From positions 33,364-97,363 of the forward strand of contig JBKQNJ010000095.1 in assembly GCA_052146315.1 (NCBI GenBank): DNA of 64,000 nt, read 5' to 3'. This DNA is from Candidatus Acidiferrales bacterium (lineage in GTDB: Bacteria; Acidobacteriota; Terriglobia; Acidiferrales; UBA7541). Below, in pieces: positions 363 to 19,602 of the stretch (its first letter is position 1; each line of letters opens with the position of its first letter). The position numbers were made by a program, and so were the translations under genes. The notes below the pieces were generated by a model. That model was not told the DNA's origin. It did not search any database and saw only the letters and a list, made by a program, of their open reading frames with translations.

Positions 363-572
363 CTTGGCAGAGCGCGCGAGCGAAATCAAAGGAAAAAGGA
401 AGCCACTGAGACACCGAGCCGGAAGCAGGTAAGCAAGAAAAAGGCAGTTCACCGCACCCTTCGTCATAAACAGACTCAGGGCGGGGAGGCGCAGAGGGCG
501 CTGAGAAAGCCAAAGCAAAGGCTTAACACAGAGGACGCAGAGTTCGGACTGAGAGTACGGAGGCTGCGAGGC

Positions 573-995: not shown

Positions 996-1025
996 TCTCT
1001 CTGAGCCTCTGTGTCTCTGTGGCTA

Positions 1026-2129: not shown

Positions 2130-2207
2130 CGATCTCCTCAGAGCAGGTTTCCGGCTAAGTGCTTATGATACCGGGTTCGATGCGTCCTGTGAACCCAAGG
2201 TTTCCGA

Positions 2208-2369
2208 TTAGCCACAGAGGCATGCAGACACGGAGATGGAGGCAGGGAGGCAAGGAAGGAGGGAATCAACTCAGGGTATGCGCTGTCATCCCGACAGAGG
2301 CCGTCTTCTGGCCGACGAGGGATCTGCTTTTCTCTTGGTTTTCTCGGTGTCTCCGAGCCTCTGTGGCTA
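2208..2369. repeat. Inverted-repeat-bounded intergenic element (MITE/REP-like) of the TAGCCACAGAGGC family
   Basis: The 13-nt arm tagccacagaggc at 2208-2220 has a perfect reverse complement, gcctctgtggcta, at 2357-2369. The flanks extend imperfectly (gacac.gaga). The right arm overlaps the TAG stop of the M16 peptidase gene. Confidence 0.4.
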
Positions 2370-3644: not shown

Positions 3645-3742
3645 GTCAGCTTCTATTGTGGCATGCCGTCGCGGTGAATGCCATTTTCGGTCGGCTGAGC
3701 GTTTCCTGGGTTCGTGTTGTCGCGTGCTATGATGAACGCAAG

Positions 3743-4822: not shown

Positions 4823-4947
4823 GCGCCGGAGGCGCGATTGTCATTAGCCCGGCACGGAGCGCAGCGAAGTGCCGGGAAAGGAGAAAACGGGAGCCGCAAG
4901 TCCCGGAGGGACGATTGACCTGCATCGCCGACGACGAGTGGCCTGGC

Positions 4948-6006
4948 TCAGGACAAACCGCGCTGCTTAATTCCGATGGCGGCCATCAGGCGGCCGGTGG
5001 TGCGTTCGCGGCGATAACTGAAAAACAGATCGGTGCGGCACGCGGTGCAATAATCCGACGCCGAAATCTGGCGCGGCGGGACGCCTGCCACCGCGAGAAT
5101 CGCGCGATTCGCGGCGATCAGATCGAGATGGACGCGCGGCGGCGGAGGCGGATGTCCCGGCGGGCGCATGGTGAGCCACGGGAGCCAGTTGGGATCGTTT
5201 TCGCCGGACGAGAGCGCATCGAAAGGGCCATCGAACCATTCGCGCGCCTCGGGAAACTGCGACTGGAATTCGCGCGCGACCTCCGAGCCGACTTCGTAGC
5301 AGCAGCGGCCGATGCCGGGGCCGAGCGCGGCGATCACGTCCTCGGGGCGCGTGCCGAATTCCATGTGCATGCGGCCGAGAGTTTTTGCGGCGATGCGGGC
5401 GAGCGTCCCGCGCCAGCCGGAATGAATCGCGGCTACGGCGCGCTGCTTTGGATCGGCGAGAAGGATCGGGACGCAGTCGGCGGTCTGCACCGCGAGCAGG
5501 ACGCCCGGCTCGCGGGTGAAGAGCGCGTCGCCTTTTGGCGCGTCCGAAAATTCGCTGTTCGATTCATCCGCGCGATCGACGCGGTGGATGAGATCGGAAT
5601 GAATTTGCCGCAGCGTGATGGCGCGCATTTCGTCCGCGCCGAGCGCGTGGAAGAATTTGGCGCGATTTTCGAGTACGCGCTCGCGGGAGTCCCAGTCAGT
5701 GAAGCCGAGATTGAGTGCGCCGGCGCTTGCCTTTGTGCCGCGTTTGCCGCGCGCACCCTCGGCGGCGCCCCCGCTCGGGATCGCGCTTGCACCTCCGGGG
5801 CGCGTGCTGAAGCCATGCGTGAGCCATGCGAGGCGCGCGAGCTGTGGCGATTCGAGAATCTGCAAGCTGCCCGCGCGACGGAGTTTCCATACAGCGCGTT
5901 TCTTGGGCTGCGCCGGTTTTGCGGCGCGCTTGAATCGCGAAGCCTTCGGTTTGGCTGCGGTTGTGGCCATGGCAGGGGGCATTGCCATTATATAATCGCG
6001 CGGCAT
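4948..6006 (-). CDS. pgeF: peptidoglycan editing factor PgeF / YfiH (DUF152 laccase-domain protein) with a basic N-terminal extension
   Basis: Motifs HGFSTRPGG, QIHSDLIHRVD, LAVQTADCVPILLADP, HSGWRGT, C.YEVG, CT.C...FFSYRRE. The start is uncertain; alternative Met codons lie at 5988, 5982 and 5970. Confidence 0.8.
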   Translation of the reverse strand: MPRDYIMAMPPAMATTAAKPKASRFKRAAKPAQPKKRAVWKLRRAGSLQILESPQLARLAWLTHGFSTRPGGASAIPSGGAAEGARGKRGTKASAGALNLGFTDWDSRERVLENRAKFFHALGADEMRAITLRQIHSDLIHRVDRADESNSEFSDAPKGDALFTREPGVLLAVQTADCVPILLADPKQRAVAAIHSGWRGTLARIAAKTLGRMHMEFGTRPEDVIAALGPGIGRCCYEVGSEVAREFQSQFPEAREWFDGPFDALSSGENDPNWLPWLTMRPPGHPPPPPRVHLDLIAANRAILAVAGVPPRQISASDYCTACRTDLFFSYRRERTTGRLMAAIGIKQRGLS

Positions 6007-6020
6007 CTGAGCGAGGAGAC

Positions 6021-6398
6021 ATGATCGTCGGGCTGGGGCTGGACATTGCGGAAATCGACCGGATCGAGGCGGCCATCAAGCGCCACGGCGCGCCGTTTCT
6101 CGAGCGGCTGTTCACGCCCGCCGAGATGGCGTATTGCGAGAGCCACAAGGGCAAATACGAGCGCTACGCCGCGCGGTTTGCCGCGAAAGAAGCCGCGATG
6201 AAGGCGCTCGGCACGGGATGGAGCCACGGCGTCCGCTGGCGCGACATCGAAGTGACGCGCGAGCCGAGCGGCAAGCCCACGTTGCGGCTCGCAGGCGTCG
6301 CCGCGGACATCGCAAAGCGCATGGGCGTGAAGAATATTTCGCTCACAATCACGCACAGCGGCAATCTGGCCCTGGCCGAAGTGATTTTCGAAAGCTAG
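6021..6398 (+). CDS. acpS: holo-[acyl-carrier-protein] synthase
   Basis: Begins MIVGLGLDIAEIDRIE, with FAAKEA..KALG and ISLTITHSG..A.A.V. The ATG at 6021 is the typical AcpS N-terminus. Confidence 0.85.
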   Translation: MIVGLGLDIAEIDRIEAAIKRHGAPFLERLFTPAEMAYCESHKGKYERYAARFAAKEAAMKALGTGWSHGVRWRDIEVTREPSGKPTLRLAGVAADIAKRMGVKNISLTITHSGNLALAEVIFES

Positions 6399-6422
6399 GG
6401 CGGCGAACAACCACTCCTCGAA

Positions 6423-7760
6423 TCAATCTTCCAAACAAACTTCGCGCCATTCGTTGGCCGGATGGTGGCCGGGGATGCGGACCTTGAGGTAATTCCCGGT
6501 GAGCGCTTCTGTCCAATCGTCGCCGATGCGGGCGAGCGTGAGGGCGCGCAGCGTGCTGCCGGACTGCGAGGCGCGGAAGCCCGCGGCTTTCTGCTCAGCG
6601 AGGGCACGTAAAGCTCGAGCGCGCTGGCGAATTACCTGCGCGGGAACGCGTTTCCCCAGGTTCGCGGCGGCGGTGCCGGGCCGCTCAGAAAACGAGAAGA
6701 CGTGGAGATACGTGAAGGGCAGGGCGGCGACGAACTGCGCGGTAGCGTCGAAGTCGGCGCCCATTTCGCCGGGGAAGCCGACGATTACGTCGGCGCCGAT
6801 CGCGGCGTCAGGCACGAGGCGGCGAATCAGCCGCACGCGCTCGGCGTAGTGCGCGGCGCGATACCAGCGGTGCATGGCGCGCAGGATGCGATCCGAGCCC
6901 GACTGCAGCGGCACGTGAAAATGCGGGGCGATGCGCGGCGAGGATGCGACGAGTGCGACGAAGTCCTCAGTGACGTCCTGCGGCTCGATCGAGCTGAAGC
7001 GGAGCTGCTCGAGACCGGTTTCGTCGAGGATGCGGCGCACCACATCGCTAAGCGCGGCGCGCGGCGTGAGATCGCGGCCGTAGCTGCCGAGATTGATGCC
7101 GCTGAGGACGATTTCGCGCGTGCCCGCTTTCACCATGCCGCGCACTTCGTCGATCACGGCGTCCGGGGCGAGGCTGCGGCTGCGCCCGCGGACGAACGGA
7201 ATCACGCAGTAGGAGCAGCGATTGTTGCAGCCGTCCTGAATCTTCAGGATCGGGCGCGTGCGATCGGCTGCCGAGGCATCGGCGGTCGCCGAGAGCGGGA
7301 TGTTCACGCCGGTTTGCGCGAAGATGTCGCCGGTGAGGATTTTCGCCGGGCCGCGCGCGAGGGACATCGCGTCGTCGTTGAGCCGCGCGAGCGGAACGAA
7401 ATCCGTGCGATGGGGCGGCGCATCCAAATCGCCGATCAGGTTGGGAATCTGCGATTGGTGCGAATTTCCGACGACGAGCGCGACGCCGTCGAGCACGGCA
7501 AGTTCATCGGGCGCGCGCTGCGCGTAGCAGCCGGTGACAATAATGCGCGCCGCCGGATTCGCGCGATGGATTTTACGCACGGCGTCGCGCGCCTGAGAAT
7601 CCGCAGCTGCTGTGACGGTGCACGTGTTCAGCACGACGACCTCGGCGGTCGCGTGGCCGTCGGCTAGCGTGAGCCCGCTCGCGAGCAATTCGCGGCGCAA
7701 CGCGGCGGCGTCCGCTTCCGTGGCCCGGCACCCGAAATTCTCGATGGAAAAACTAGGCAT
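6423..7760 (-). CDS. mtaB: MiaB/RimO-family radical SAM methylthiotransferase, probably tRNA t6A37 methylthiotransferase MtaB
   Basis: N-terminal FSIENFGCRATEAD (UPF0004 domain), then KIQDGCNNRCSYCVIPFVRG (radical SAM), then a C-terminal TRAM-like segment. Confidence 0.8.
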   Translation of the reverse strand: MPSFSIENFGCRATEADAAALRRELLASGLTLADGHATAEVVVLNTCTVTAAADSQARDAVRKIHRANPAARIIVTGCYAQRAPDELAVLDGVALVVGNSHQSQIPNLIGDLDAPPHRTDFVPLARLNDDAMSLARGPAKILTGDIFAQTGVNIPLSATADASAADRTRPILKIQDGCNNRCSYCVIPFVRGRSRSLAPDAVIDEVRGMVKAGTREIVLSGINLGSYGRDLTPRAALSDVVRRILDETGLEQLRFSSIEPQDVTEDFVALVASSPRIAPHFHVPLQSGSDRILRAMHRWYRAAHYAERVRLIRRLVPDAAIGADVIVGFPGEMGADFDATAQFVAALPFTYLHVFSFSERPGTAAANLGKRVPAQVIRQRARALRALAEQKAAGFRASQSGSTLRALTLARIGDDWTEALTGNYLKVRIPGHHPANEWREVCLED

Positions 7761-7821
7761 CGACGAAAGTATAGCAGCGAATTCGACATTGGTTTTGGAC
7801 GAAGGATAACGCAGCGGCGGT

Positions 7822-8424
7822 TCAGGGGTGCTGCCAAACTCCGACGAACATCGCGCAGGGGCGTCTCGAACTTACAATCCATTCATCGTGCGCCTTCTCC
7901 ATCACGAGGGTGTCTCCGCTGAGGCACTGCTGGCCACATAAGAGGAGGTATTTCACCAGCGCAAATTGGTGCTTTGTGTCGAACACAATCTCAGACAGCA
8001 CCAGGACATTCGAATGTGCCCGTTGATCGTCCAGGGCCGGCTTATTCTGGTCCTTCGACAACGCGTCGCGCTGCTGGAGTAGTTCTCGCTTTTGGACGGT
8101 GTCGACGAGTCTTATGTCCATGCCTTTCGTGATTTCTTGGGGAAGAGCGTGGGTGGTTCGAAAGGGCTCGGAATCGTTTTCGAGTTCAATTCCCCTCAGG
8201 CAGGGTCGCCCCTCTGGGAATCCCTTAAAGTCGAATGTCACAGTGACGTTTGAGAGGTTTCGGAAGTGGAGGAAGGAGGAAAATTTCTCTAGGAAACCCC
8301 GATATACCGCGATTTGCTCCGCGTTGATAGGTGAGGCACTGGAGACTGGCTGCTGCTGTGCTTTAGGGGGCGACGCCAGAACGATCACCACATAAAGCGC
8401 GGCTAGTGCTTTGACACTTCTCAT
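7822..8424 (-). CDS. hypothetical secreted protein
   Basis: Signal-peptide-like N-terminus MRSVKALAALYVVIVLASPPKAQQ. Lower G+C than its neighbours. Lies 6 nt downstream of the LuxR-type regulator gene, so probably co-transcribed. Confidence 0.5.
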   Translation of the reverse strand: MRSVKALAALYVVIVLASPPKAQQQPVSSASPINAEQIAVYRGFLEKFSSFLHFRNLSNVTVTFDFKGFPEGRPCLRGIELENDSEPFRTTHALPQEITKGMDIRLVDTVQKRELLQQRDALSKDQNKPALDDQRAHSNVLVLSEIVFDTKHQFALVKYLLLCGQQCLSGDTLVMEKAHDEWIVSSRRPCAMFVGVWQHP

Positions 8425-8430
8425 GGCGAG

Positions 8431-9105
8431 CTATTGGTCGGCGCGGCGCTGGTAGCAGAGGAGGATGAGGTCGGCGCGGCGGCGGACGCCGAATTTCGCG
8501 AGCAAATTCGAGACGTGAAATTTCACGGTGCGCTCGGAGATGTGCAGGCGGTCGGCCACTTCCTTATTCGCGAGATTTTCGAGCAGGCCGCTGAGGACTT
8601 CCTGCTCGCGGCGGCTGAGTTCGCTCGGGGAATCGGCGCGCAGGCGGCGTCCCTGAGTGTTGCTGAGGATCGAATCGACGAATCGCGAAAGCACCGGGCG
8701 CGGCACCCAAATGCCGCCCGAAGCGACTTGCGGCAAAGCGCGCGCGAGCTGCTCGCGTGCCTCGGCGTAAGTGAGAATGCCTTTCACTCCCTGGCGGAGA
8801 AGGGCGTGGCTGTCCGCTTCCTTCAGCTTGTCCCCGACCACCAGGAGGCGCGCGCCGGAATGCTTGTCCAAAATGTTGCCGAGCAGGGCGCCTGTGGCCT
8901 GATGCGCCGCATGAGCATCGACGACGTAAACGGATGCCTTGGGGAGGTCGAGGTTGCGCAAGTCAGGCGCAAGCATGGAATCGAGCTGCTTCGACGTGAT
9001 CTGAAATCCCGAGTCTTCCAGCAGCCGGTGCAATTCGTCCAGCACCATGGGGTGCGGCGAGAGAAGGCAGACCTTGAGATTCGATTTGCCGTTGTTCTTG
9101 GACAT
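8431..9105 (-). CDS. LuxR/FixJ-type response-regulator-like protein with an atypical receiver
   Basis: C-terminal LuxR HTH: LSRREQEVLSGLLENLANKEVADRLHISERTVKFHVSNLLAKFGV. The N-terminal receiver-like fold keeps VYVVDAH and GVKGIL but has CLLSPHP where the acidic DD pair normally sits. Confidence 0.75.
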   Translation of the reverse strand: MSKNNGKSNLKVCLLSPHPMVLDELHRLLEDSGFQITSKQLDSMLAPDLRNLDLPKASVYVVDAHAAHQATGALLGNILDKHSGARLLVVGDKLKEADSHALLRQGVKGILTYAEAREQLARALPQVASGGIWVPRPVLSRFVDSILSNTQGRRLRADSPSELSRREQEVLSGLLENLANKEVADRLHISERTVKFHVSNLLAKFGVRRRADLILLCYQRRADQ

Positions 9106-9246
9106 GGCGCTTACCTGAATTGAGGCTAACGGAATTGGCTAGCGGGAGCAAGGCGGACGCAACGGGCTATTTCATACCAGACACGGGGTCAGAGGGGTAA
9201 GCGAATCGTTGATTGAAACTTTGCGAACAGCGCGTAATGCCGCAGG

Positions 9247-10314
9247 CTAATCAGAGTCAGTTTCAAGGATGCGGCGGGGGCGCTTCGCGGGAAGGCCCGC
9301 CTGGCGAACCTTGTAGAGCAGGGCGCGGTAGCTGATTTTCAATACTTCGGCGGCCTTGCGGCGATTCCACTGATTGGCCTGGAGCACCCTCAGGATCACA
9401 TCGCGCTCCATGCGGCGCGTGGCTTCCTGAGCGATGCGCTTGAGAGGAATATTGCCATCGGGCGTCGGTTCGTAGCTGAAGCGGGCGGGAGCGGACTCCA
9501 CCCGCTCGGCGTAGAACGAGTCTTCCGAGCCGAGGACGACGTAGCGAGCCACGCAGTTTTCGAGTTCACGGACATTGCCGGGCCAATCCCGCTGCTGAAG
9601 CAGGTGAATCGTTTCTTTCGAGAGCGGCGCGGCATCGCGCTGGAAGCGGCGATTGAACACGCCGCGGAGGTATTCGGCGAGATACGGAATGTCGGAGCGG
9701 CGTTCGCGAAGTGCCGGCAGCGTGATGCTGATCACGTTGATGCGGTAGAAAAGATCCGAGCGAAACCCCCCGCTTTCGATTTCCTTCTGGAGCCGGCGAT
9801 TCGTCGCGCAGATCACGCGCGCGTCCAGACGCTTTTCGTCGTGGCCGCCGATGCGCATGAAGTGGCCGTCCTGCAGAACGTGGAGGAGTTTGGCTTGCAG
9901 GCCGGAATCGATCTCTGCAATTTCGTCCATGAAGAGCGTGCCGCCCTGCGCCGTCTCCATGCGGCCGGGCTTATCGGCGTGCGCGCCCGTGAAAGCGCCC
10001 CTTTGAAAGCCGAAGAGCTCGCTTTCGATAAGCGCCCCGGGAATCGCCGGGCAATTGACTTTGACGAAGGGGCCATTTCGCCAAGGCGATTGGTTGTGGA
10101 TAAACCGCGCGAGGATTTCCTTGCCTGTGCCGCTTTCACCCAGGATGAGTATTGGTACGTTCAGTCCCGCGGCTCGTTCCACTTTTTGACGGACGGACTG
10201 CATTGCCGCCGATGGACCGAAATAGATGGATTCTGGCGGCACTTCGGCCTGATACGCTACGGTGTCGGTTCTTATGGGCGCGACAGAGGCCATCGACTGA
10301 AGTGCATTGCACAT
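9247..10314 (-). CDS. sigma-54-dependent transcriptional activator (bEBP) lacking an N-terminal sensory/receiver domain
   Basis: Walker A GESGTGKE, the sigma-54 contact loop GAFTGA, Walker B LFMDEI, WPGNVRELEN, and a C-terminal Fis-type HTH (AAEVLKISYRALLYKV). Only about 45 residues precede the AAA+ core. Confidence 0.85.
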   Translation of the reverse strand: MCNALQSMASVAPIRTDTVAYQAEVPPESIYFGPSAAMQSVRQKVERAAGLNVPILILGESGTGKEILARFIHNQSPWRNGPFVKVNCPAIPGALIESELFGFQRGAFTGAHADKPGRMETAQGGTLFMDEIAEIDSGLQAKLLHVLQDGHFMRIGGHDEKRLDARVICATNRRLQKEIESGGFRSDLFYRINVISITLPALRERRSDIPYLAEYLRGVFNRRFQRDAAPLSKETIHLLQQRDWPGNVRELENCVARYVVLGSEDSFYAERVESAPARFSYEPTPDGNIPLKRIAQEATRRMERDVILRVLQANQWNRRKAAEVLKISYRALLYKVRQAGLPAKRPRRILETDSD

Positions 10315-10689
10315 CGAACGCCAAAAGCGGGACAGATTGCGCTCTGCACACCCCGGCCGTCGACCACGCGAAAATCCTCGTGTAGAGCGCGCTTTTAAAG
10401 GGAGACGTGACTGCGTTGTCGTGGCCGGCAGCTAGGCCGATCCGGTCCATTCAGACGAGACCCTGAAAATCATTAGCACTTTGGGGAAGGACTGTTCCAA
10501 CTATAGTTCCAGTACTCCGCAGGGGAAAGGTTGAGCCGACAGTGGTTTAGCAATCCCAATCCGTAATTGTACGTTCGTGAACTTTCGTTCGCGGAGGTTC
10601 TTCGCCAGGGAAGATGGGCTGAAGGAAACTGCTGGCCATAGGGAGGAGAACGCGAGGGGGCGGCCGCAATGCTGCGTTCTCCAAGGCTT

Positions 10690-11031
10690 TCAGGCGCGCG
10701 AGTTTTCGCCGCGAATGATATCGTAGCGCTCGATCACCGCGGCAATTCCAATAGGTTCCTGATCGTCCGTGGCGGAGCGCCGATCGACGCGAACGACGCG
10801 CCCGTGAGCGCGCACGAAAACTTCCGTGCCGCGCGTGATTTCCGCAGGCAGCGTAAGTGTGAAATCCAGCTCGGTGCCGGGGGCGAGATCGTTTTCCACG
10901 GTGAAGTAAACACCACGTGTGGAAATATCCCGTGTCTGGCCGCTGTGGGATCTCGGTTCCCGATTAATTGGCAGGCGGACGTTCACCGGTAGCGAAAGAT
11001 CGTACCGGCGTGCCATTCGACGTTCCGTCAT
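10690..11031 (-). CDS. PilZ domain protein (c-di-GMP receptor-like)
   Basis: RRMARRYDL (RxxxR) and TRDISTRGVYF (DxSxxG). The ATG at 11029-11031 is preceded by AAGGAG. The longer track ORF (to 11091) would overlap the predicted promoter. Confidence 0.75.
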   Translation of the reverse strand: MTERRMARRYDLSLPVNVRLPINREPRSHSGQTRDISTRGVYFTVENDLAPGTELDFTLTLPAEITRGTEVFVRAHGRVVRVDRRSATDDQEPIGIAAVIERYDIIRGENSRA

Positions 11032-11086
11032 CCGTGCGGCTCCTTGAACGCTGGAATTAAGATACACGGCTCCCCCGCAAAAGAGG

Positions 11087-11102
11087 AGCAATCGCTATAC
11101 CA
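11087..11102 (-). promoter_or_regulatory. candidate sigma-54 (-24/-12) promoter for the PilZ gene
   Basis: The minus strand reads TGGTATAGCGATTGCT. GG and GC have the exact consensus spacing of TGGCACG-N4-TTGCW. It lies about 55 nt upstream of the ATG at 11031. Confidence 0.5.
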
Positions 11103-11435
11103 AAGCTTCACTTATCGGGTGGTGCCGGCCCTTGGGGCGCCATGCCGGCCGCTCGCGATCACTCGAGCAACAACCCCTTTTACGACAACAAGCATCGTCG
11201 CGCGATACATGACCACCAGAACCCGATTCGCGCGAAAAGATGGTTGTGCGCGGCCCCTATCGGAGCGGAATACTAGAACAAGGCAAGGTCAAATGGGTAG
11301 TGCTATTTCGCTGCGTGTGCCCAAGATATGCAACAATTTACCTCAACTCATGGCACACGTACCAGGACCTCCAAATGAACGAAGGCCGCAGGGCCGCCAT
11401 TCCCCATAATCTTCGCCAAGAGTTCCTTCGCGGCG

Positions 11436-12953
11436 CTAAGAGCTGCGAACCACCGCGGGGGCGTCTTCCTTCGCGCTCTCTTTTTCTTTCGCTGCCTCTT
11501 TTGCGGCGGCAGCAGTTTTGGCGGCTTCCCGGGCCGCGGCCGAGCGCGAGCCGCGTCCTGAATCCAGATTGAACGCGCGCATTTTGTAGAGCAGCGCTTT
11601 GTAGCTGATTCCCAGCATGCGCGCGGCATCCTTGCGGCACCAGTTCGTTTTCTCGAGCGCGTCGGCGATCGCTTCCATTTCCGCTTCGTCCTTCAAGCCG
11701 CGCACCAGCGCCTTGAGGCCTTGTTCTTTAGGCGCGGCCGTCGTTTCCTGTTGAGGAACGACGCGCTGTTGCTGCCCGGTCATTTCGAGCAGCTCGCGGA
11801 AGCTGCCTTCGTCATCCTCGAGGATCACGTAGCGCTTGACGAAATTCTCGAGCTCGCGCAAGTTGCCGGGCCACGAATAGCGCAGCGCGGCTTCGAGAAG
11901 ATGCTTCGACGGCTCCGGCGCCCCTTTCTGATACTTCTCGCTGTATTTCGCGAGGAAGTGGCGGAAGAGCAGCGGAATTTCGGCGGTGCGCTCGCGCAGC
12001 GGCGGGATGTGGATCGAGAGCACGTTGAGACGATAGTAGAGATCCTCTCGGAAGCGGCCCGTTTTCATGGCCTCCTTCACGTCCATGTTGGTGGCGGCCA
12101 GCACGCGCACGTCGACGTTGACGACCGCGCGAGCGCCGAGGCGCGAATACTGGCCGTCCTGCAGGACGTGCAGGAGCTTCGCCTGAAGGTGCGGGCTCAT
12201 TTCGGCGATCTCGTCGAGAAAGATGGTGCCCTTGTTCGCGAGCTCGAATTTGCCGGGCTTCGAACGCACGGCGCCCGTGAACGCGCCCTGCTCGTAGCCG
12301 AAAAGCTCGGATTCGAGAAGTTCGCCGGGCAGCGCCGCGCAATTCACCTTGACGAAAGCCTGCTGGCGGCGCAGCGAGCGGAGATGCACCATTCGCGCGA
12401 CGACTTCTTTTCCCACACCGCTTTCGCCGCTGAGAAACACGGGCACGTCGACCGGCGCGATCTGCAGAATCTGCTGGCGAATCTTGAGCATCTGCGGGCT
12501 GGCGGCGAGGAATGAAATATCCTCGGTGAGGGCCTCGCAGTATTCGCGCAGCGCCTGATTCTCGGTGCGGAGTTCTTTTTTCTGGCGGCACTTGAGGAAA
12601 GCGGCATCGAGCTCGGGCTTCTCGAAAGGCTTCGTCAGATAGTCGAGCGCGCCGAGACGGATCGCTTCGACGACGGTGGTGACCTCGTTCAAGCAGGAGA
12701 GCATCAGGACGTTGAGCGAGCGATCCATCTGCATCAACTGGCGGAGCGTTTCGAGCCCGTCGATTTCGGGCATCAGCACGTCGAGGATGATGAAGTCGGG
12801 ACGCTCGCCGCGGCCGACGCGCGCCAGCGCTTCCTTGCCGCTGGTGACGGCTTCCACGTCGAACCCGTCCACCTCAAGCAGCGTTTGAAGATATTTCCTG
12901 ATACTCGGTTCATCATCGACGATCAGGATCTTTTCTTTGTGTGCCATCGGCAT
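11436..12953 (-). CDS. NtrC-family sigma-54-dependent response regulator
   Basis: Receiver (ILIVDDEPSIR ... FIILDVLMPEIDG), AAA+ core (GESGVGKE, GAFTGA, IFLDEI, WPGNLRELEN) and Fis HTH (AARMLGISYKALLYKM), followed by an Ala/Lys/Glu-rich tail. Confidence 0.9.
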   Translation of the reverse strand: MPMAHKEKILIVDDEPSIRKYLQTLLEVDGFDVEAVTSGKEALARVGRGERPDFIILDVLMPEIDGLETLRQLMQMDRSLNVLMLSCLNEVTTVVEAIRLGALDYLTKPFEKPELDAAFLKCRQKKELRTENQALREYCEALTEDISFLAASPQMLKIRQQILQIAPVDVPVFLSGESGVGKEVVARMVHLRSLRRQQAFVKVNCAALPGELLESELFGYEQGAFTGAVRSKPGKFELANKGTIFLDEIAEMSPHLQAKLLHVLQDGQYSRLGARAVVNVDVRVLAATNMDVKEAMKTGRFREDLYYRLNVLSIHIPPLRERTAEIPLLFRHFLAKYSEKYQKGAPEPSKHLLEAALRYSWPGNLRELENFVKRYVILEDDEGSFRELLEMTGQQQRVVPQQETTAAPKEQGLKALVRGLKDEAEMEAIADALEKTNWCRKDAARMLGISYKALLYKMRAFNLDSGRGSRSAAAREAAKTAAAAKEAAKEKESAKEDAPAVVRSS

Positions 12954-12980
12954 CCCTATGGAGCGATTGTTCCGCTCATC

Positions 12981-14309
12981 CTATTCCACATCGGTAGGCA
13001 GCAGGAAGGAAAAAGAGCTTCCGCGTCCCGGTTCGCTATCGACCCAGATTTTTCCGCGATGAGCCTGGATCAATCGTTTCGTGATTGCCAATCCCAAGCC
13101 CATGCCCGAAGACGAAGGATCGACGCGTACAAATTCTTCGAAGATTTCCTGATGGAACTCGGCCGCAATCCCGTGACCCGTGTCCGTGACTGAAATCAAC
13201 ACGCTATTGGCCTTGGCGGGGGTGCTGCGGCGCCGCTCCTGCGACGGAGACGCGTCCGAAATGCGCCGCTCCCAGAAATGCGGCTGCGCGCGCAACGTCA
13301 CCAAGCCCGTGGCGGGCGTGTGCTTGAGCGCGTTGTCGAGCAGATTGAAGATGCACTGCTGCACCTTCTGGTAATCGAATTTGAAGAGCGGAAGATCGGG
13401 ATGCACCTGCACGTCGAGGCGCACGCTGGCGCGCTGAAACGCGTCGCCCCAACGGCTCGCCAGATCGTTGATGCAGTCGCGGAGATCGTTTTCGCAAAGC
13501 TGCAGAACGAGTTTGCCGCTCTCGAGCGCCGAATAGTTGAGGAACATCGAGACGAGGCGCACGAGGCGATCGCAGCTCTCCTTCGATTCGCGCAAAATGT
13601 CCTGCTGGCGCTCGCTGAGTTTTCCGAGCGAACCCGAAAGCAGCAGGTCGTAATAGCCCTTCATCACCGCGAGCGGCGTTTTCAATTCGTGCGCGGCGGA
13701 GCCGAGCAGCACGGTCTTCTGGCGATTGGCCTCCTGCAGGCGCAGGTAGGCGGCCAGAAGATTCCTGTACGTAATCTCGCGCTCCTGCATCAGTTCCTGG
13801 ACGGTCTGGCGCATCTGCGTCTCGTCAGCAGAGACTTCTTGGGGGAGCGCCTCGATGTAGACGGCGAGCCAGTCGGGCTCCGGGAGCCAGCGGATACGCG
13901 CGACGGCCTTGCCCTGGCCGGCTTCGATCGGGAGCAGCACGTCCTGCTTGCCTCGTTCCAGCTGGCTTAGAATTTCCTTGCCATCGGCGTTAAGAATGTC
14001 TCGAAAGAGGTTCGGGTCGGGCTTGGCGCTCCACGCGAGGGGGTTCAACGCGTTCTGCGCATGGAGATTCGTGAAGACAATCAGTCCCGCGCGGTCGGAA
14101 ACAAGCAAGGGGCGATCCAAAGCATCGAGCAGACTAGCGACTGCTTGAAAACTTACCTGATCACTCGTTTGCTTTTCAGCCGCTGCCGTACTTTTGGCCA
14201 ACTCGCCCTCCACCGGCTCCGGGAACGAGCAAAGACACCACTCGAATCCTTGTCTCAGAGAATCGAGTGGGAATGGGCTCGAAGGTTTGTATGCTCGCAA
14301 AGGCGCCAA
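12981..14309 (-). CDS. sensor histidine kinase (soluble, PAS-like N-terminus)
   Basis: H-box SAAHELKTPLAV, N-box NLLDNALKHTP, G-boxes VTDTGHGI and GMGLGLAI. No obvious transmembrane segment. Lies 27 nt upstream of the NtrC-type RR gene, so probably an operon. Confidence 0.85.
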   Translation of the reverse strand: MAPLRAYKPSSPFPLDSLRQGFEWCLCSFPEPVEGELAKSTAAAEKQTSDQVSFQAVASLLDALDRPLLVSDRAGLIVFTNLHAQNALNPLAWSAKPDPNLFRDILNADGKEILSQLERGKQDVLLPIEAGQGKAVARIRWLPEPDWLAVYIEALPQEVSADETQMRQTVQELMQEREITYRNLLAAYLRLQEANRQKTVLLGSAAHELKTPLAVMKGYYDLLLSGSLGKLSERQQDILRESKESCDRLVRLVSMFLNYSALESGKLVLQLCENDLRDCINDLASRWGDAFQRASVRLDVQVHPDLPLFKFDYQKVQQCIFNLLDNALKHTPATGLVTLRAQPHFWERRISDASPSQERRRSTPAKANSVLISVTDTGHGIAAEFHQEIFEEFVRVDPSSSGMGLGLAITKRLIQAHRGKIWVDSEPGRGSSFSFLLPTDVE

Positions 14310-14461
14310 ATAGAGTCAATGGTAAAAGCGTCCTAGCGTTTGCACAAACGTGGAAATGAATTGCAGTAAACCGGAACATTTCAAAGGCTATACGGGGTGA
14401 GTCCATTCGCACGGCTTAGGCATCTAACTGAAAAGGAGCGGTTTACGAAAGCGGAATGGAG

Positions 14462-14477
14462 GGGTAGAGAACTTGCA
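14462..14477 (+). promoter_or_regulatory. weak candidate sigma-54 promoter upstream of the second PilZ gene
   Basis: GGGTAGAGAACTTGCA: GG (14463-64) and GC (14475-76) are correctly spaced and the -12 element TTGCA is good. The -24 flank is poor. It lies 43 nt before the ATG at 14520. Confidence 0.35.
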
Positions 14478-14519
14478 GAGGAAGGGGCAGCCCAACGGAG
14501 TACTAATACTCGGGTACCA

Positions 14520-14876
14520 ATGAGCGTACGAGAAAACATCGTGCAGCAGAAGGTTGCGCAGTCTTACGACGATCGGCGCCGATTCCATCGGATCCACCTC
14601 CAGGTGCCGCTCTTCATCCGTGGTAAGGATGCTCACGGGGAGCAGTTTATGGAGTTGTGTAAGACGCTTGATATCAGTGGATTAGGGGCCTTCGTCATCT
14701 GTCCGCGCTCCCTCACGATCAACGACATCATTATCCTGACGATCCCGGCTCCTTCAATCATCTCATCGGGCCTGGTGCCAGCCGGGATGCCTCCGATCCA
14801 AGCCAGGGTCAAGCGGCAACAGGAAGCCGGCGAAGCACACCTCGTAGGCGTCGAGTTCCTGAAGCCTATTGGGTAG
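14520..14876 (+). CDS. PilZ domain protein
   Basis: DDRRRFHRIHL (RxxxR) and TLDISGLGAFV (DxSxxG). I chose the ATG at 14520 (MSVRENIV...). Confidence 0.7.
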   Translation: MSVRENIVQQKVAQSYDDRRRFHRIHLQVPLFIRGKDAHGEQFMELCKTLDISGLGAFVICPRSLTINDIIILTIPAPSIISSGLVPAGMPPIQARVKRQQEAGEAHLVGVEFLKPIG

Positions 14877-15046
14877 GAAGTTTTCCACAGGCTGGGCGTT
14901 GCCCATTCGCGGCACAGCTCCGACCCGAAATGGAAGGGCTTTTCCATCCATGTTCGCCTCCGCTTGCAACCCTTGGGGGCGATCAAATAATCTACGTATT
15001 GGCAGCGACTTAGGACCGAGCCCCGGGTTATATTCTTGTCCGGGAT

Positions 15047-15062
15047 TGGACTGTCCCTTGCT
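15047..15062 (+). promoter_or_regulatory. candidate sigma-54 promoter upstream of the GGDEF-PilZ gene
   Basis: TGGACTGTCCCTTGCT: GG at 15048-49 and GC at 15060-61 have exact consensus spacing. It lies 58-76 nt before the possible starts (TTG 15120 / ATG 15138). Confidence 0.5.
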
Positions 15063-15119
15063 ACAGTGATACCGCCCCGCAGGTGTCCTGGATACAGGAT
15101 AAACTAGACGTACGTTCGC

Positions 15120-16439
15120 TTGACTCGGAACTCATTGATGCCCCAGCCAGCCGACGCTTCGCCGTCGCAGCCATCGGCGGACGATTCTTTCTTGGACCTG
15201 CTGGTCGAGACCCTCGAGGGTCTCGACGAGACGGTGCGCGGACAATTCCTCCGCCAGTTTTTCCATACCATCGCGAAAATCGATTTGCCCGAACCGCAGA
15301 GCAACGATTACTGGCAGCGGATTCTGCAGCGGCGCCGGGAACTTTCCGAAAGCCTCGGCAGAAAAGTGGCGCTGGCCACGGCTATGGTCGACGTGCTGTC
15401 GTCGACCAATTTTATTCGCGTGCCGATCGTGATGGAGTACGACGAACTCAAGAAGCTCCAGATCAACGCGGCCACGGATCCTCTGACCGGGCTCTACAAC
15501 CGGCGGCTCTTTGACGAATATTGCGACAAGGAGCTGAACCGCGCGAAACGCTACGGCCAGCATCTCGCCATCGTGATTCTGGATCTTCACCGGCTCAAGG
15601 AAGTGAACGACCGGCACGGGCATCTGCGCGGGGATCAGATGTTGCAGCTCGCGGCGACCACTCTGCGCAAGACGCTGCGCGCCGCCGACTTCGCCTTCCG
15701 CATCGGCGGCGATGAATTTGTGCTGCTCCTGCCGCAGACCGATACCGAGCAGGCCGTCACGCTGTGCCGCCGCGTCCGTTCGCTCTATGAGAGCGACGTG
15801 GTCTCGCTTAAGCTCGAAGTTGGCGTGACGCTCGATTTCGGCGTCGCCGTGCATCCGCAGGATGGCGATCAGAAAAGCGATCTGCTGCGCACGGCGGACG
15901 AGCGGCTCTACGAGCTCAAGCGCTCGGGCCACGCTCCGCGCGTGGTTCCCATCGAGACGCATCCGGCTCGCGAAAGCGCTCCGGCTGCTGCGCCGAAAGC
16001 TCCCGCCGCGCCGCCCGCGGTGGCTCCGCCGCCGAGGGCTCCCGCCGCGGTGCCTCCCCCTGTTCCGCCAAATGTTCCGCCCAGCGCGGCTGTGCCGCCT
16101 GCGCAACCTGCGGCACCGCGTTCACCAGCGCCACCGTCTCCGCCTGAACAAGCCGCCCCTCCTCCCCATTCCGAGCAGCGGAAGTGGGAACGCGTGTCGC
16201 TCGGCGGCACGAAAGCGCACGCCGTGCTGACGGATGTGGGCCAGAAAACCGCAAAGGTGATCGACCTGAGCTACGGCGGCGTGGCGCTGCTGTTCGAAAA
16301 GGAAGAAGACCTCCCGGCCCAGTTTCACGCCGTCCTTCACGTGCCGATTCTTCCGCCGGTCCGCGTGATCCTACGCAAGTCCTACGTGCTTTCGGCCGAC
16401 GACGGCCGCATGCGCGTCGGCTGCTCCTTCGTCTCTTAG
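15120..16439 (+). CDS. diguanylate cyclase (GGDEF, with I-site) fused through a Pro/Ala-rich linker to a C-terminal PilZ domain
   Basis: DPLTGLYNRR, the RAAD I-site five residues before FRIGGDEF, and a roughly 85-aa linker (PAAPPAVAPPPRAPAAVPPPVPPNVPP...). Then QRKWERV (RxxxR) and VIDLSYGGVAL (DxSxxG). Confidence 0.85.
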   Translation: MTRNSLMPQPADASPSQPSADDSFLDLLVETLEGLDETVRGQFLRQFFHTIAKIDLPEPQSNDYWQRILQRRRELSESLGRKVALATAMVDVLSSTNFIRVPIVMEYDELKKLQINAATDPLTGLYNRRLFDEYCDKELNRAKRYGQHLAIVILDLHRLKEVNDRHGHLRGDQMLQLAATTLRKTLRAADFAFRIGGDEFVLLLPQTDTEQAVTLCRRVRSLYESDVVSLKLEVGVTLDFGVAVHPQDGDQKSDLLRTADERLYELKRSGHAPRVVPIETHPARESAPAAAPKAPAAPPAVAPPPRAPAAVPPPVPPNVPPSAAVPPAQPAAPRSPAPPSPPEQAAPPPHSEQRKWERVSLGGTKAHAVLTDVGQKTAKVIDLSYGGVALLFEKEEDLPAQFHAVLHVPILPPVRVILRKSYVLSADDGRMRVGCSFVS

Positions 16440-16525
16440 GCTTCCCGGGCATTGCTGGAAAAATCTGGCGGAGCGCGCTAAGATACAGCTTCCGTTTCCG
16501 GCCTGCCGAGTCGATTGGGCGTTCC

Positions 16526-17419
16526 ATGGCGGTTACAATTTCCTTACCTCAAACCATTTCAAAGAAGCGCGCTGGTCTTGACGTGTGGATGGAGCGCGCG
16601 CTCGACAAGGCGTCAAACATCGAGCCGGAATGGGACGCAGACGAGGTCCACGACCTGCGCGTCGCGCTGCGGCGCTGCCGGACCATGGCCGAGGCTTTGA
16701 GCGAAGTCAGCGCCAGCTCTGGCTGGCGCAAGCTCAAGAAAGCCAGCAGGGGACTCTTTCACACGCTCGGCGATCTTCGCGATACGCAGGTGCAGCGCGG
16801 CTGGGTGAAGAAGCTGGGCTCGGCGGGCGATCCGGTGCGGAAACACCTGTTGCGTCTGCTGGCTGGCGAGGAAAAGAAGCAGAAGGGACTCGCGGCGCAG
16901 GCCCTTGAGGTGTTCGATCGCAAGGAATGGAAAAAGCTTGGGCGCAAGCTGCCGGACAAGGCCGAATTTTTCCCGCTGGGGAGCGTCGTATTCCAACGGC
17001 TGGCTTTGGCGAAGCTCAACGAAGCCGTCGAGCTTTACCAGCAGGCGCGGAAAAGACGCAGCGCCGTCGCCTGGCATCGGCTACGGATCGGCCTGAAAGA
17101 ATTTCGCTACATCGTTGAGAATTTTCTGCCCGAGCGCTATGAGGTCTGGGCCGCCGATCTGAAGGTGATGCAGGATCAGCTCGGCGACGTCCACGATCTC
17201 GATGTGCTGCGCGGCAGACTGCGCAAGGAGGCTGCGAGGCTCGACGCCGCGGCCCTCGCCAAATGGATCGAGAAAATCGCCACGACGCGCAAGTCGCGGC
17301 TCGACGAATTCCTCGCGAAAGCCTCCGGTCCCGAATCGCCGTGGCTCGTTTGGCGGGCAGGATTTCAATGGGGACACGCGCTCGTCGCCGCATCCTTCCC
17401 GCAGCGCCGCACCGCATGA
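16526..17419 (+). CDS. CHAD domain protein (polyphosphate-granule-associated family)
   Basis: EVHDLRVALRRCRTMAEAL and the repeated AWHRLRIGLKEFRYIVE helices are typical of CHAD. The ATG at 16526 was chosen; the upstream part of the track ORF overlaps the GGDEF gene in another frame. Confidence 0.8.
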   Translation: MAVTISLPQTISKKRAGLDVWMERALDKASNIEPEWDADEVHDLRVALRRCRTMAEALSEVSASSGWRKLKKASRGLFHTLGDLRDTQVQRGWVKKLGSAGDPVRKHLLRLLAGEEKKQKGLAAQALEVFDRKEWKKLGRKLPDKAEFFPLGSVVFQRLALAKLNEAVELYQQARKRRSAVAWHRLRIGLKEFRYIVENFLPERYEVWAADLKVMQDQLGDVHDLDVLRGRLRKEAARLDAAALAKWIEKIATTRKSRLDEFLAKASGPESPWLVWRAGFQWGHALVAASFPQRRTA

Positions 17420-17423
17420 AGTC

Positions 17424-17487
17424 TCTAAGGTTTTCCGGGTGCCCCATCCTCGGTTTCTGAGGGTGGGGCTTTTGACTTTCCGTTTCT
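17424..17487 (+). repeat. 64-nt REP-like dispersed element, copy A
   Basis: tctaaggttttccgggtgccccatcctcggtttctgagggtggggcttttgactttccgtttct. It is near-identical to 24082-24145 (4-5 mismatches, same orientation). Confidence 0.8.
17442..17473 (+). terminator. hairpin plus T-run inside REP copy A; plausible intrinsic terminator of the CHAD gene
   Basis: CCCCATCCTC ggtttct GAGGGTGGGG forms a 10-bp stem with one G-U pair, followed by cTTTTg. It lies 23 nt after the CHAD stop, between convergent genes. Confidence 0.5.
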
Positions 17488-17544
17488 ATCGCGATAGCTC
17501 GCGGTGGAAGCGCGAGTCCTTTGAGGACACAAACGATTCGTTCG

Positions 17545-18039
17545 TCAGCCTTCCAATTTCCGCAGGAACTTGGCGGTCAGCACCCACTTCAGATTCCACC
17601 GGCTGTGCGGAGAAGCTTGTTCGAAGCACGCGGCGCCAGCCTTCTTCAATTCCGTGAACGGTCCGCGCGATCCCGCCAGCTGCGCGATCAGCAGATCGAG
17701 ATGAGGCGCGTGGCCGAAGAGCGCCACTTCCTTTGCCTTGAGGTGCGAGATCTCCTTCAAGATTTCGGCCGGATTCTGCGCGGGCTTCAGCGCGTCGCTC
17801 ACGCGAATTTTCTCCGGTGAAAAGGCGAGTGCCTCCGCGAATATTTCCGCGGTTTGCGCCGCGCGCACGTAGGGGCTCGTGATCAGCACTTCCGGTTTCG
17901 CGCTCAGCGCGCAGAACCCGAGCGCCGCTTCGCGCGTCTTTTGCACGCCGCGCGCGGTCAAAGGACGTTCCGCCTCGGCCGGCGATTTCGGATCGGTGCG
18001 GTCGACGGCGATGCCGTGGCGGACGAGATAGAGGATCAT
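17545..18039 (-). CDS. sixA: phosphohistidine phosphatase SixA-like (histidine phosphatase superfamily)
   Basis: MILYLVRHGIA ... RPLTARG ... LITSPYVRAAQTAEI ... LFGHAP. The RHG catalytic motif is at the N-terminus. Confidence 0.8.
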   Translation of the reverse strand: MILYLVRHGIAVDRTDPKSPAEAERPLTARGVQKTREAALGFCALSAKPEVLITSPYVRAAQTAEIFAEALAFSPEKIRVSDALKPAQNPAEILKEISHLKAKEVALFGHAPHLDLLIAQLAGSRGPFTELKKAGAACFEQASPHSRWNLKWVLTAKFLRKLEG

Positions 18040-18042
18040 GGT

Positions 18043-19602
18043 TTAGGCGACCTTCTCCTTTCGCTGCACACGCCGGAACTCCGTCTTCAGGTGAAATTCT
18101 CTTTCGAAGAGCGCCGCCTTGCGTTCCAGTCCGGTCACATCGAGCCGCGTGCCCTCGGCCGCGCGGATCAGAAAAATCGCGCGATGCCCGGCGATCTGGA
18201 CGTCCACGCCCTCCACGCGCTGCGCGTGCTCCGATTCGAGTTTTTCGGCGATGCGCAGCAGCGAAGTGAGCAGGCGCATCTCGCGCCGCCGCGAGCCATC
18301 GAGCGCGGCGTACGAGGCGTGTTCGATTTGCGGCTCGGATTTGCAATTGTGGTAGCGCACCAGCGCGCCGACCATATCGCGCCGCCAGCCGCGCAACCCG
18401 GGAATCTCGCTGTTGCGGATCATGTATTCGCCGTGGCGGTTGTGCGACTTGCGGTGAACGAAATGCCCGATATCGTGCAGCATCGCTGCGATTTCAAGCA
18501 GCAGCCGGTGATCCGGTCCCAGCTCGTGGATCGGGCGCAGCTGATCGAAGAGCGAAAGCGCGAGGCGCGAGACCTGCTCGGCGTGCTGCGGGTCGTAGTT
18601 GAGGCGGCTAGCGAACCACCGCGCCGCGGTCAGCAACTCCTCGGCGCGGTCTTTTTCCTCCGCCGACGCTTTGCCCGCCGAATATTGCTCGGCGACCAGA
18701 TCGAGCAGCAGCCCCTCGCGCACGCCCACGCCGGGCACGAGAATCGAGCGCAGGTCGAGCCACTTCGCCACCGTGCCGATAATGATCGCCGCGATGCCGA
18801 TCACTTCGGCGCGGTCTCTGCGCATGCGAAACACGCGCATGCGGCCCGGCACGTCGAGGAGCAGCAGCCGCAGCCTCTGGTCTTTCAGCAGCCGCACGTT
18901 GATCGCCGGCGTCCTGCCAAACATCGGACCAGGCGCGAAGCGCACGAGCGCTTCGGCATTTCCGCCGGACGCGACGCCGATCGCGCGCGAAAGCTTCGGC
19001 GGCGAGGGCATCGCGCTGCGCAGCAGAGCCAGAATGTGTAGCTTCAGCCGCTTCGCGCTTTCTTCGTCGATGGCGCCGTCGATCGCGTAGGTTTCCATCA
19101 ACCGAATCGTGCCGAGCGGCAGCGCGACGCGCTCGCTCACTTCTCCGCGATCGAAAAAATTGATTTCGAGGCTGCCGCCGCCCAGATCGAAAATCACGCG
19201 CGGCTGAACTTTGTCGCCGAGCGCCCACCGCACGGCCGAGCAGACCAGCCGCGCCTCTTCCTCGCTCCCGATCACTTCGAGTTCGATTCCGGACTTCCGC
19301 TGGATGCGCTCCATCAGCTTCCGGTAGTTGCGCACTTCGCGCGCGGCGGCCGTGGCGACGGCGCGGTACGCCGTCACCTGATGGCGGTCCATGCGGTCGC
19401 GAAAGTGCCGGAAGACCCGCGCCGCCCGCGAAATCGTCTCGTCGTCGAGCAGATGCCGCGTGAAGGCGTTATGCCCGAGGCGCACGGCGGCACGTTCGGT
19501 CTCCAGAATCTCGATGTGTTGCGGGGAAGTGGCACGCGCTATCACCAGCCGGATGGCGTTCGATCCGGCGTCGATCGCTGCCAGTTGTACCGGGGCGGCC
19601 AC
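18043..19602 (-). CDS. ppx: exopolyphosphatase Ppx/GppA with C-terminal HD domain
   Basis: LAAIDAGSNAIRLVIA, DLGGGSLEI (ASKHA fold), and a C-terminal LHDIGHFV...HNRHGEYMI HD motif. Confidence 0.9.
   Translation of the reverse strand: MAAPVQLAAIDAGSNAIRLVIARATSPQHIEILETERAAVRLGHNAFTRHLLDDETISRAARVFRHFRDRMDRHQVTAYRAVATAAAREVRNYRKLMERIQRKSGIELEVIGSEEEARLVCSAVRWALGDKVQPRVIFDLGGGSLEINFFDRGEVSERVALPLGTIRLMETYAIDGAIDEESAKRLKLHILALLRSAMPSPPKLSRAIGVASGGNAEALVRFAPGPMFGRTPAINVRLLKDQRLRLLLLDVPGRMRVFRMRRDRAEVIGIAAIIIGTVAKWLDLRSILVPGVGVREGLLLDLVAEQYSAGKASAEEKDRAEELLTAARWFASRLNYDPQHAEQVSRLALSLFDQLRPIHELGPDHRLLLEIAAMLHDIGHFVHRKSHNRHGEYMIRNSEIPGLRGWRRDMVGALVRYHNCKSEPQIEHASYAALDGSRRREMRLLTSLLRIAEKLESEHAQRVEGVDVQIAGHRAIFLIRAAEGTRLDVTGLERKAALFEREFHLKTEFRRVQRKEKVA

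Follow-up and report, generated by a model that had tools for sequence, protein, structure and literature searches.

What connects sigma-54-dependent transcription with c-di-GMP (cyclic dimeric guanosine monophosphate) signalling where genes for sigma-54 activators lie among genes for PilZ proteins and a diguanylate cyclase? The question is raised by a 64,000-nucleotide stretch of DNA (the window) from a 4.15-Mb metagenome-assembled genome of Candidatus Acidiferrales (Acidobacteriota, Terriglobia; contig JBKQNJ010000095.1, positions 33,364 to 97,363 of the forward strand), which carries the following genes.

9247–10293, minus strand: bEBP1, a bacterial enhancer-binding protein, here a receiver-less sigma-54 activator (Pfam Sigma54_activat, 219 bits, and HTH_8; AAA+ domain with GAFTGA, Fis-type helix-turn-helix)
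10690–11031, minus strand: PilZ1, a single-domain PilZ protein (Pfam PilZ, 38 bits, cut-off 22.5; motifs RRMAR and DISTRG)
11436–12953, minus strand: NtrC-type response regulator (Pfam Response_reg, Sigma54_activat with GAFTGA, and HTH_8)
12981–14213, minus strand: cytoplasmic histidine kinase (Pfam HisKA and HATPase_c; longest open reading frame to 14309)
14520–14876, plus strand: PilZ2, a single-domain PilZ protein (Pfam PilZ, 38 bits, cut-off 22.5; motifs RRRFHR and DISGLG)
15138–16439, plus strand: GGDEF-PilZ diguanylate cyclase (Pfam GGDEF, 145 bits; longest open reading frame from TTG 15120)

The original prediction had proposed that each of the three PilZ-containing genes is preceded by a -24/-12 motif and that the local activators switch on the cyclase together with its receptors. 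Our comparison with related genomes supports the locus as a conserved sigma-54/c-di-GMP unit, through the presence of rpoN, the GAFTGA motifs of the activators and the conservation of two of the proposed elements; the part of the claim that gave all three PilZ-containing genes a sigma-54 promoter did not hold. We consider it probable that c-di-GMP components are expressed through a sigma-54 cascade set off by the NtrC-type two-component system.

The genus-level comparison comprises 35 same-genus genomes that carry the entire locus with an identical order of genes. The organism is known solely through metagenome-assembled genomes; its relatives, which originate from soil and peat, are labelled as Ca. 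Acidiferrales, Acidobacteriota or Terriglobia. Related genomes are not independent, and the counts reported here describe conservation and are no statistical tests. The genome contains a single copy of rpoN, which is also present in 60 of 61 relatives, and encodes 16 true sigma-54 activators.

Elements of the -24/-12 type upstream of bEBP1, PilZ1 and the cyclase gene

The three 16-mers of the original prediction lie where it had placed them, with GG-N10-GC spacing: TGGTATAGCGATTGCT (11087–11102, minus strand), GGGTAGAGAACTTGCA (14462–14477) and TGGACTGTCCCTTGCT (15047–15062), referred to below as M1, M2 and M3. A fourth element, upstream of bEBP1, had been missed together with its associated palindrome, as had a sigma-70-like promoter of the cyclase gene and a class-level gene core without the cyclase. 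All four sites present GG at -25/-24 and GC at -13/-12, 10 nucleotides apart. They are listed here with their position weight matrix (PWM) scores, the consensus scoring 20.0, and with candidate upstream sites.

10308–10324, minus strand: -24/-12 element TTGGCGTTCGATGTGCA before bEBP1, PWM 9.4
10485–10498, palindrome: GGAAGGACTGTTCC, candidate upstream activator site of the bEBP1 promoter
11087–11103, minus strand: M1, -24/-12 element TTGGTATAGCGATTGCT before PilZ1, PWM 16.2, rank 7 in the genome, predicted transcription start ~11076
11259–11335, minus strand: conserved non-coding block 170–250 nt upstream of M1, at least 90% conserved in ~33 genus loci
14462–14477, plus strand: M2, doubtful clade-specific -24/-12 candidate before PilZ2, PWM 8.0
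15046–15062, plus strand: M3, -24/-12 element TTGGACTGTCCCTTGCT before the cyclase gene, PWM 11.8, predicted transcription start ~15073

The class-level conservation of the bEBP1 element is the strongest evidence for a putative promoter in this study. TTGG-N10-GC precedes the bEBP1 gene in 18 of 19 loci drawn from six Terriglobia families, as compared with 0–2 of 19 for the other spacings (N6 to N14), and TTTGG...TGC is invariant in the genus (34 loci) and in the families represented by loci L037 and L038. In 33 of 34 genus loci, the palindrome GGAA-N6-TTCC stands upstream of the TTGG, at a distance of 173–205 nt (184 nt being the mode). It recurs in a sister family (L037 and L038) and, with at most one mismatch, in 16 of 18 class-level loci at 159–188 nt. 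In the clade of the window, which includes L002 and L003, ~55 nt of the bEBP1 leader have been lost, so that the predicted transcription start falls ~4 nt before the ATG and the message would be near-leaderless.

Conservation likewise supports M1 as a -24/-12-type element. TTTGG[AT]A...GATTGCT is the sole fully conserved block in the proximal ~130 nt ahead of M1 across the 35 syntenic genus loci, and it lies 52–61 nt from the PilZ1 ATG. The element is kept in ~33 of the 35 genus loci and in sister genera, with unconserved flanks, and conservation stops directly after the -12 box. We discarded an extracytoplasmic function (ECF) or sigma-70 reading of M1, as no conserved -10 box occurs at the right distance past the -12 box. 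Farther upstream, the ~80-nt block at 11259–11335 reads, in minus orientation, TGTTGCATATCT.G.GCACA ... AAATAGCACTA ... GGTCTAGTATTCCGCTCCGA. RNAalifold detected no consensus RNA structure on either strand of this block (-0.8 and -1.2 kcal/mol), so that the block may be an enhancer of composite type acting on the PilZ1 promoter.

M3 is supported as a conserved -24/-12-type element by the alignment of the cyclase upstream region, in which TTGGACT....[T/G]TGCT is found in 35 of 35 genus loci. All 80 further loci also carry the element, in 33 variants, some of them nearer to the consensus, with invariant TGG and TGC and without a single insertion or deletion between them. In the sister family represented by L036, -24/-12 elements stand before all three c-di-GMP genes, with scores of 14.7, 11.7 and 16.4.

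A spacing control on the orthologous upstream regions agrees with these alignments. The median best score peaks solely at the correct spacing and on the gene strand for PilZ1 (14.3, at most 8.4 otherwise), the cyclase (10.6, at most 7.1) and bEBP1 (9.7, at most 6.8). Since the wrong-spacing controls are built from identical matrix halves, they are robust to errors in the matrix.

The genome-wide scan suggested by the original prediction singled out M1 and neither M3 nor M2 by score alone. Only seven sites in the genome score 16 or more, M1 being the seventh; non-coding DNA holds eight of the top nine matches, and three are found no more than 2 kb from an activator gene. An upstream match that is correctly spaced and scores at least 11 is present in 11.8% of the genes located up to 3 kb from an activator gene, and one with a wrong spacing in 1.7%; for genes distant from activators, the values are 2.5% and 2.1%, respectively. 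Sigma-54 sites in this genome are thus recognizable mainly beside activator genes, and a score of 11.8 in such a position therefore probably marks a real site, while a score of 8 is uninformative. Matched to the extended consensus TGGCAC-N5-TTGCW, M3 and the bEBP1 site rise above the genome background only when their nearness to activators is counted, and M2 does not.

Elsewhere in the genome, a minus-strand site with a score of 14.8 (ATGGTATAGACCTTGCT, at position 43528 of contig C130) has the unusual -24 half TGGTATAG in common with M1 and lies 289 nt before a gene for a 324-residue protein.

Alternative readings of the upstream regions

Several observations weigh against sigma-54 control of the locus. 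The PWM is an approximation of the Barrios compilation, and the genes were called with a crude open reading frame scorer. Genome-wide, TGG-N8-TTGCW, taken as a loose pattern, shows no excess at its correct spacing (189 sites, 50 of them non-coding, vs 154–229 and 49–75 at wrong spacings) and therefore supports no site. In non-coding DNA, wrong spacings yield scores at the level of M3 and M2 just as often, and away from activator genes the PWM barely separates right from wrong spacing, so that score alone proves nothing for M3 (11.8) or for the bEBP1 site (9.4). No activator site common to the three promoters emerged from k-mer and palindrome searches: GGAA-N6-TTCC is found at the bEBP1 promoter and, in five genomes, at the cyclase promoter, with none at PilZ1. 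At enhancer distance, the bEBP1 promoter has its constrained palindrome, M3 an ambiguous palindrome at 14932 and M1 the unassigned conserved block at 11259–11335. M3 is off consensus at -23/-22, with AC in place of CA, and M3 could lie within a leader because a sigma-70-like promoter stands ~53 nt upstream of it. In about half of the genus, TTGAC.-16/17-TAAT.T occurs 50–55 nt before the TTGG. M2 is upheld neither by its score nor by conservation across the genus: its GG is missing from most of the genus, which has CTTGCATTCAAATTGCG at this position, TTGCA being common to both, and the spacer between the kinase and PilZ2 genes shows no peak of the median score at the correct spacing (6.3 vs 7.1 at a wrong spacing).

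The weak genome-wide discrimination would fit the view that GG-N10-GC occurs by coincidence within sequences conserved for other reasons, such as sites of LuxR-type or other regulators or promoters of other sigma factors, and that sigma-54 has no role here. Away from activators, comparable matches indeed show no excess at the correct spacing, and the same spacers hold several other conserved blocks. We nevertheless regard such a coincidence as very improbable, since three independent spacers peak solely at the sigma-54 spacing and on the coding strand, TTGG-N10-GC precedes bEBP1 in nearly all class-level loci and other spacings in at most two, the conservation of M1 ends after its -12 box, past which no -10 box is conserved at the distance expected for ECF or sigma-70 factors, and the sites adjoin two sigma-54 activator genes.

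A more specific objection concerns the cyclase gene, whose upstream region contains three further features.

14932–14945, palindrome: GGAAGGGCTTTTCC, 116 nt upstream of M3, candidate activator site or terminator hairpin of PilZ2
14964–14991, plus strand: sigma-70-like promoter TTGCAA-16-AATAAT, found by consensus scan
15075–15099, plus strand: conserved leader CCCCGCAGG with a hairpin at 15086–15099 (from the alignment; pairing by eye, unscored)

The block at 15046–15062 could be no promoter at all: the cyclase would then be expressed from the sigma-70-like promoter, and the block would lie in a ~140-nt leader as a protein operator or, jointly with the hairpin and CCCCGCAGG, as an RNA element. 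The match to the sigma-70 consensus, the constant position of its counterpart in roughly half the genus and also in L036, the conserved downstream leader with compensatory changes in its hairpin, and a spacer within M3 that is conserved beyond the need of a sigma-54 promoter all speak for this interpretation. It is weakened by RNAalifold, which found no structure involving M3 in the cyclase leader (-0.37 kcal/mol, no covariation), and by Rfam, which at E-values up to 1 gave no match, and hence no riboswitch or known leader, over positions 9000–17500. Moreover, the invariant positions of M3 are exactly the TGG and TGC of the sigma-54 core, with positions -23 to -15 varying over the 33 variants in the absence of indels, and the internal GGAC/GTCC palindrome of M3 is not maintained. 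We consequently rate the leader interpretation as quite unlikely, all the more as sigma-70 and sigma-54 promoters can coexist in tandem, which is the simplest reconciliation for the cyclase gene.

Other features of this region are recorded here. The relatives carry AAAGTGGAA-N-TTTTCAC at 14932–14945, with a compensatory change in the window. The stems of the cyclase leader hairpin among the relatives are TCCTG/CAGGA, CCCTG/CAGGG and GCCCC/GGGGC, which are compensatory, and the GGA motifs of the leader resemble CsrA-type sites. We also considered a small RNA at the locus and dropped the idea because RNAalifold gave no structured RNA.

The original prediction in full would add PilZ2 to the regulon: all three PilZ-containing genes, PilZ2 through M2 included, would be driven by sigma-54 under both local activators as a self-contained circuit. 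In M2, the GG-N10-GC halves are correctly spaced and the -12 box reads TTGCA, and the 16-mer is unchanged in ~nine close relatives, including L044 and L003, the flanks of which have diverged. The PilZ gene at the equivalent position in other families is preceded by canonical TTGGCAC-type elements, and L076 has TTGGTTTGAGAGTTGCA, with a score of 14.4, at the position of M2. Against this, scores of 8.0 turn up often in non-coding DNA whatever the spacing, the absence of the GG from most of the genus is accompanied by the lack of a spacing peak, and the conservation of M2 is of little weight because the clade that keeps it, the window's own, is shallow. The prediction of a -24/-12 motif before each of the three genes thus stands for M1 and M3, through conservation among orthologues, and is doubtful for M2, with its noise-level score and a GG that is not genus-wide. 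Overall, we find the full circuit somewhat doubtful.

The 17-mer CTTGCATTCAAATTGCG, found in L004–L035, matches the sigma-54 consensus at all positions but two, -25 (T) and -11 (G). Compared with it, the clade of the window shows a loss of the second TTGC and a newly acquired GG upstream of the first, a change that may reflect promoter sliding. Since L076 has its 14.4 element at the M2 position, a turnover of the promoter that retained sigma-54 control of PilZ2 is conceivable, with M2 itself unproven. PilZ2 is a possible member of the same regulon, its motif being weak and confined to the clade of the window.

The PilZ2 upstream region has further features of its own. In CTTGCATTCAAATTGCG, TTGC is directly repeated at a distance of one helical turn. 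Directly before the PilZ2 ATG, positions 14498–14518 read GAGTACTAA[AT]ACT.GGGTACC, a block that is near-invariant in more than 100 genomes, holds two GTAC palindromes and a ribosome-binding G-run, and might serve as an operator or as a translational hairpin. The kinase–PilZ2 spacer has, in a large sub-clade of the genus (L012–L033), a conserved TGAC[TC]-N4-[AG]GTCA palindrome that is absent in the window.

Gene products and their distribution in Terriglobia

Pfam searches bore out the domain content of the six genes as first described, namely a receiver-less activator, an NtrC-type regulator, a kinase, two PilZ proteins and a GGDEF protein, and their open reading frames were confirmed. Conservation led us to revise three of the starts. 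The longest open reading frame of bEBP1 reaches 10314; the conserved start, ATGGC in the alignment, is ATG 10293, which we take as the real one because the -24/-12 element overlaps ATG 10314. For the kinase, the probable start is GTG 14213, preceded by GGAG; relatives carry stop codons in the N-terminal extension (14214–14309), and the first 32 codons of the longest reading frame are probably non-coding. A conserved promoter-like block, TTGACA-17-GAGCAT, sits inside this extension and is listed here with its window coordinates, its assignment as a promoter being by eye:

14291–14319, minus strand: sigma-70-like promoter TTGACT-17-GAGCAT with TGC before it, in a conserved alignment block, for the kinase–regulator operon

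The conserved start of the cyclase is ATG 15138.

Both local activators have GAFTGA and Walker motifs. bEBP1 consists of the AAA+ domain and a C-terminal helix-turn-helix, without an N-terminal sensory domain, as in PspF and HrpS; by Pfam, its AAA+ domain begins at residue 33 of the long reading frame, or residue 26 counted from ATG 10293. Its orthologues across the class have open frames of 343–470 residues. An NCBIfam search returned no equivalog for any protein of the locus: bEBP1 reached 262 bits against PspF models with a cut-off of 443, and the best matches of the response regulator, to AtoC, a PEP-CTERM regulator and NtrC, were all under their cut-offs.

The cyclase is built from an N-domain of unknown type, the GGDEF domain, a Pro/Ala-rich linker and a C-terminal PilZ domain. 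Its GGDEF active site is intact, and a RAAD I-site is located five residues upstream (RAAD-FAFRI-GGDEF). The C-terminus falls under the Pfam PilZ threshold (15.2 bits, E-value 0.027) and gives weak matches both to PilZ2 by hhalign (E-value 0.019) and to the PDB by sequence search (E-value 0.7). RKWER and DLSYGG are, however, invariant in 24 orthologues, and an AlphaFold2 model of this region comprises six strands with a predicted confidence (pLDDT) of 83. The top 25 Foldseek matches of the model in the PDB are all PilZ domains (best E-value 2e-4, TM-score ~0.6), the leading ones being those of Alg44, BcsA, YcgR, MotI and MrkH. The model thus assigns the C-terminal domain a PilZ fold, and the label GGDEF-PilZ in the original prediction was right, as the motifs are invariant and the modelled fold matches solved PilZ domains.

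Beyond the genus, orthologues of the receiver-less activator were detected in 59 of 151 sampled Terriglobia genomes. A core made up of the kinase, the NtrC-type regulator, a PilZ gene and the receiver-less activator recurs in several Terriglobia families; the cyclase is excluded from it, its homologues among the sampled loci of other families being confined to family f1 and sister family f2. The genes of the core are either all co-directional or arranged with PilZ and the activator divergent from the kinase. The PilZ gene, with its motifs intact, usually stands directly upstream of the receiver-less activator, and these PilZ neighbours keep RxxxR-31-[D/N]xSxxG in every family examined. In one sister family, the gene that follows the activator encodes a PEP-CTERM protein or a Wza-like polysaccharide exporter (L037 6642–7412, L038 3212–3880), which hints at control of the cell surface or matrix as the output of the module.

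On the side of bEBP1, the locus is flanked by the final gene of the minus-strand row:

8431–9105, minus strand: LuxR/GerE-type regulator (Pfam GerE, 67 bits), syntenic in the genus

The left flank of the window (1–8000) holds housekeeping genes and no obvious output genes. On the other side, in the stretch 16535–19602, a gene for a CHAD protein adjoins the cyclase gene.

A putative sigma-54 cascade and its relation to known systems

We propose the following model for the locus. The cytoplasmic histidine kinase (12981–14213) would phosphorylate the NtrC-type regulator (11436–12953), the pair itself being expressed probably from a sigma-70-type promoter. The activated regulator would then drive sigma-54 RNA polymerase at the putative promoters of PilZ1 (11087–11103), bEBP1 (10308–10324) and the cyclase (15046–15062), using at the bEBP1 promoter the GGAA-N6-TTCC enhancer ~184 nt upstream. 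Because it lacks a sensory domain, bEBP1 would, once made, extend or reinforce the response, maybe as a cascade or by positive autoregulation. The cyclase would make c-di-GMP under restraint from its I-site and perhaps also from the PilZ domain that it carries, and the PilZ proteins would read the signal. The model builds on the motifs, the domains, their conservation at exact spacing, the enrichment of sites near activators, the presence of rpoN and the modelled PilZ fold of the cyclase; from these we infer that transcription starts at the sites, how activators pair with promoters, that the PilZ domains bind c-di-GMP, and the output.

Receiver-less sigma-54 activators under control in trans include PspF with PspA and HrpR/HrpS with HrpV. 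Like PspF and HrpS, bEBP1 has the GAFTGA motif, a Fis-type helix-turn-helix and only ~20–25 residues before the AAA+ core, so that either its amount or a partner protein must set its activity. In contrast to these systems, no PspA or HrpV homologue is encoded near bEBP1, and its conserved neighbour is a PilZ protein. Cascades of sigma-54 activators are also established, from FlrA to FlrC and from FleQ to FleR in flagellar systems and among the developmental activators of Myxococcus. The arrangement of bEBP1 behind a putative sigma-54 promoter with an upstream site resembles these cascades and would allow a tiered or self-reinforcing response, whereas the locus is free of flagellar or developmental genes and its identified targets are c-di-GMP components. 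Diguanylate cyclases of the PleD and WspR type are subject to feedback through their I-sites, and the cyclase described here shares with them the GGDEF site and an RxxD I-site five residues upstream. PilZ–GGDEF fusions have been noted in saprophytic Leptospira (PMC5932348); as in those, the PilZ domain is part of the GGDEF polypeptide, here in the order N-domain, GGDEF, Pro/Ala linker, PilZ.

The PilZ protein next to bEBP1 might itself be the missing sensory domain, acting in trans: in its c-di-GMP-loaded or c-di-GMP-free form it would bind bEBP1 and gate the ATPase, and c-di-GMP from a sigma-54-driven cyclase would then feed back on sigma-54 transcription. We put this forward tentatively and consider it rather unlikely. 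It is compatible with the recurrent core, the intact PilZ motifs, the putative bEBP1 promoter and its palindrome, a PilZ–activator fusion in Myxococcus (PMC8316039) and the PEP-CTERM or exporter neighbours. In that fusion, MXAN_2902 of Myxococcus xanthus, a PilZ domain for which no c-di-GMP binding is predicted forms part of an enhancer-binding protein (PMC8316039). It likewise brings PilZ and a sigma-54 activator together, the fused form there corresponding to a gene pair here; unlike MXAN_2902, the two partners are separate genes in our locus and the PilZ neighbours keep their c-di-GMP motifs. c-di-GMP is also tied to transcription through enhancer-binding proteins in the case of the c-di-GMP-responsive sigma-54 activators FleQ, FlrA and VpsR (PMC10333796) and of BerB, which is linked to c-di-GMP and acts with RpoN (PMC5552954), usually for surface, matrix or motility genes. 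Whereas these activators bind c-di-GMP themselves, the nucleotide-binding motifs of our locus reside on separate PilZ proteins. In the open-access literature, we found no description of a module that combines a separate PilZ protein with a receiver-less activator.

Acidobacteria are among the most abundant soil bacteria and, to our knowledge, almost nothing is known about their gene regulation, whereas c-di-GMP is the usual switch between free-living and matrix-embedded life. The locus offers this phylum a set of high-confidence predicted sigma-54 promoters and a candidate enhancer sequence, GGAA-N6-TTCC, and its conserved four-gene module would link a two-component system and sigma-54 to c-di-GMP. 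If the PilZ neighbour does control the receiver-less activator, the module would represent a new c-di-GMP route to sigma-54 transcription, distinct from the direct binding of the nucleotide by FleQ.

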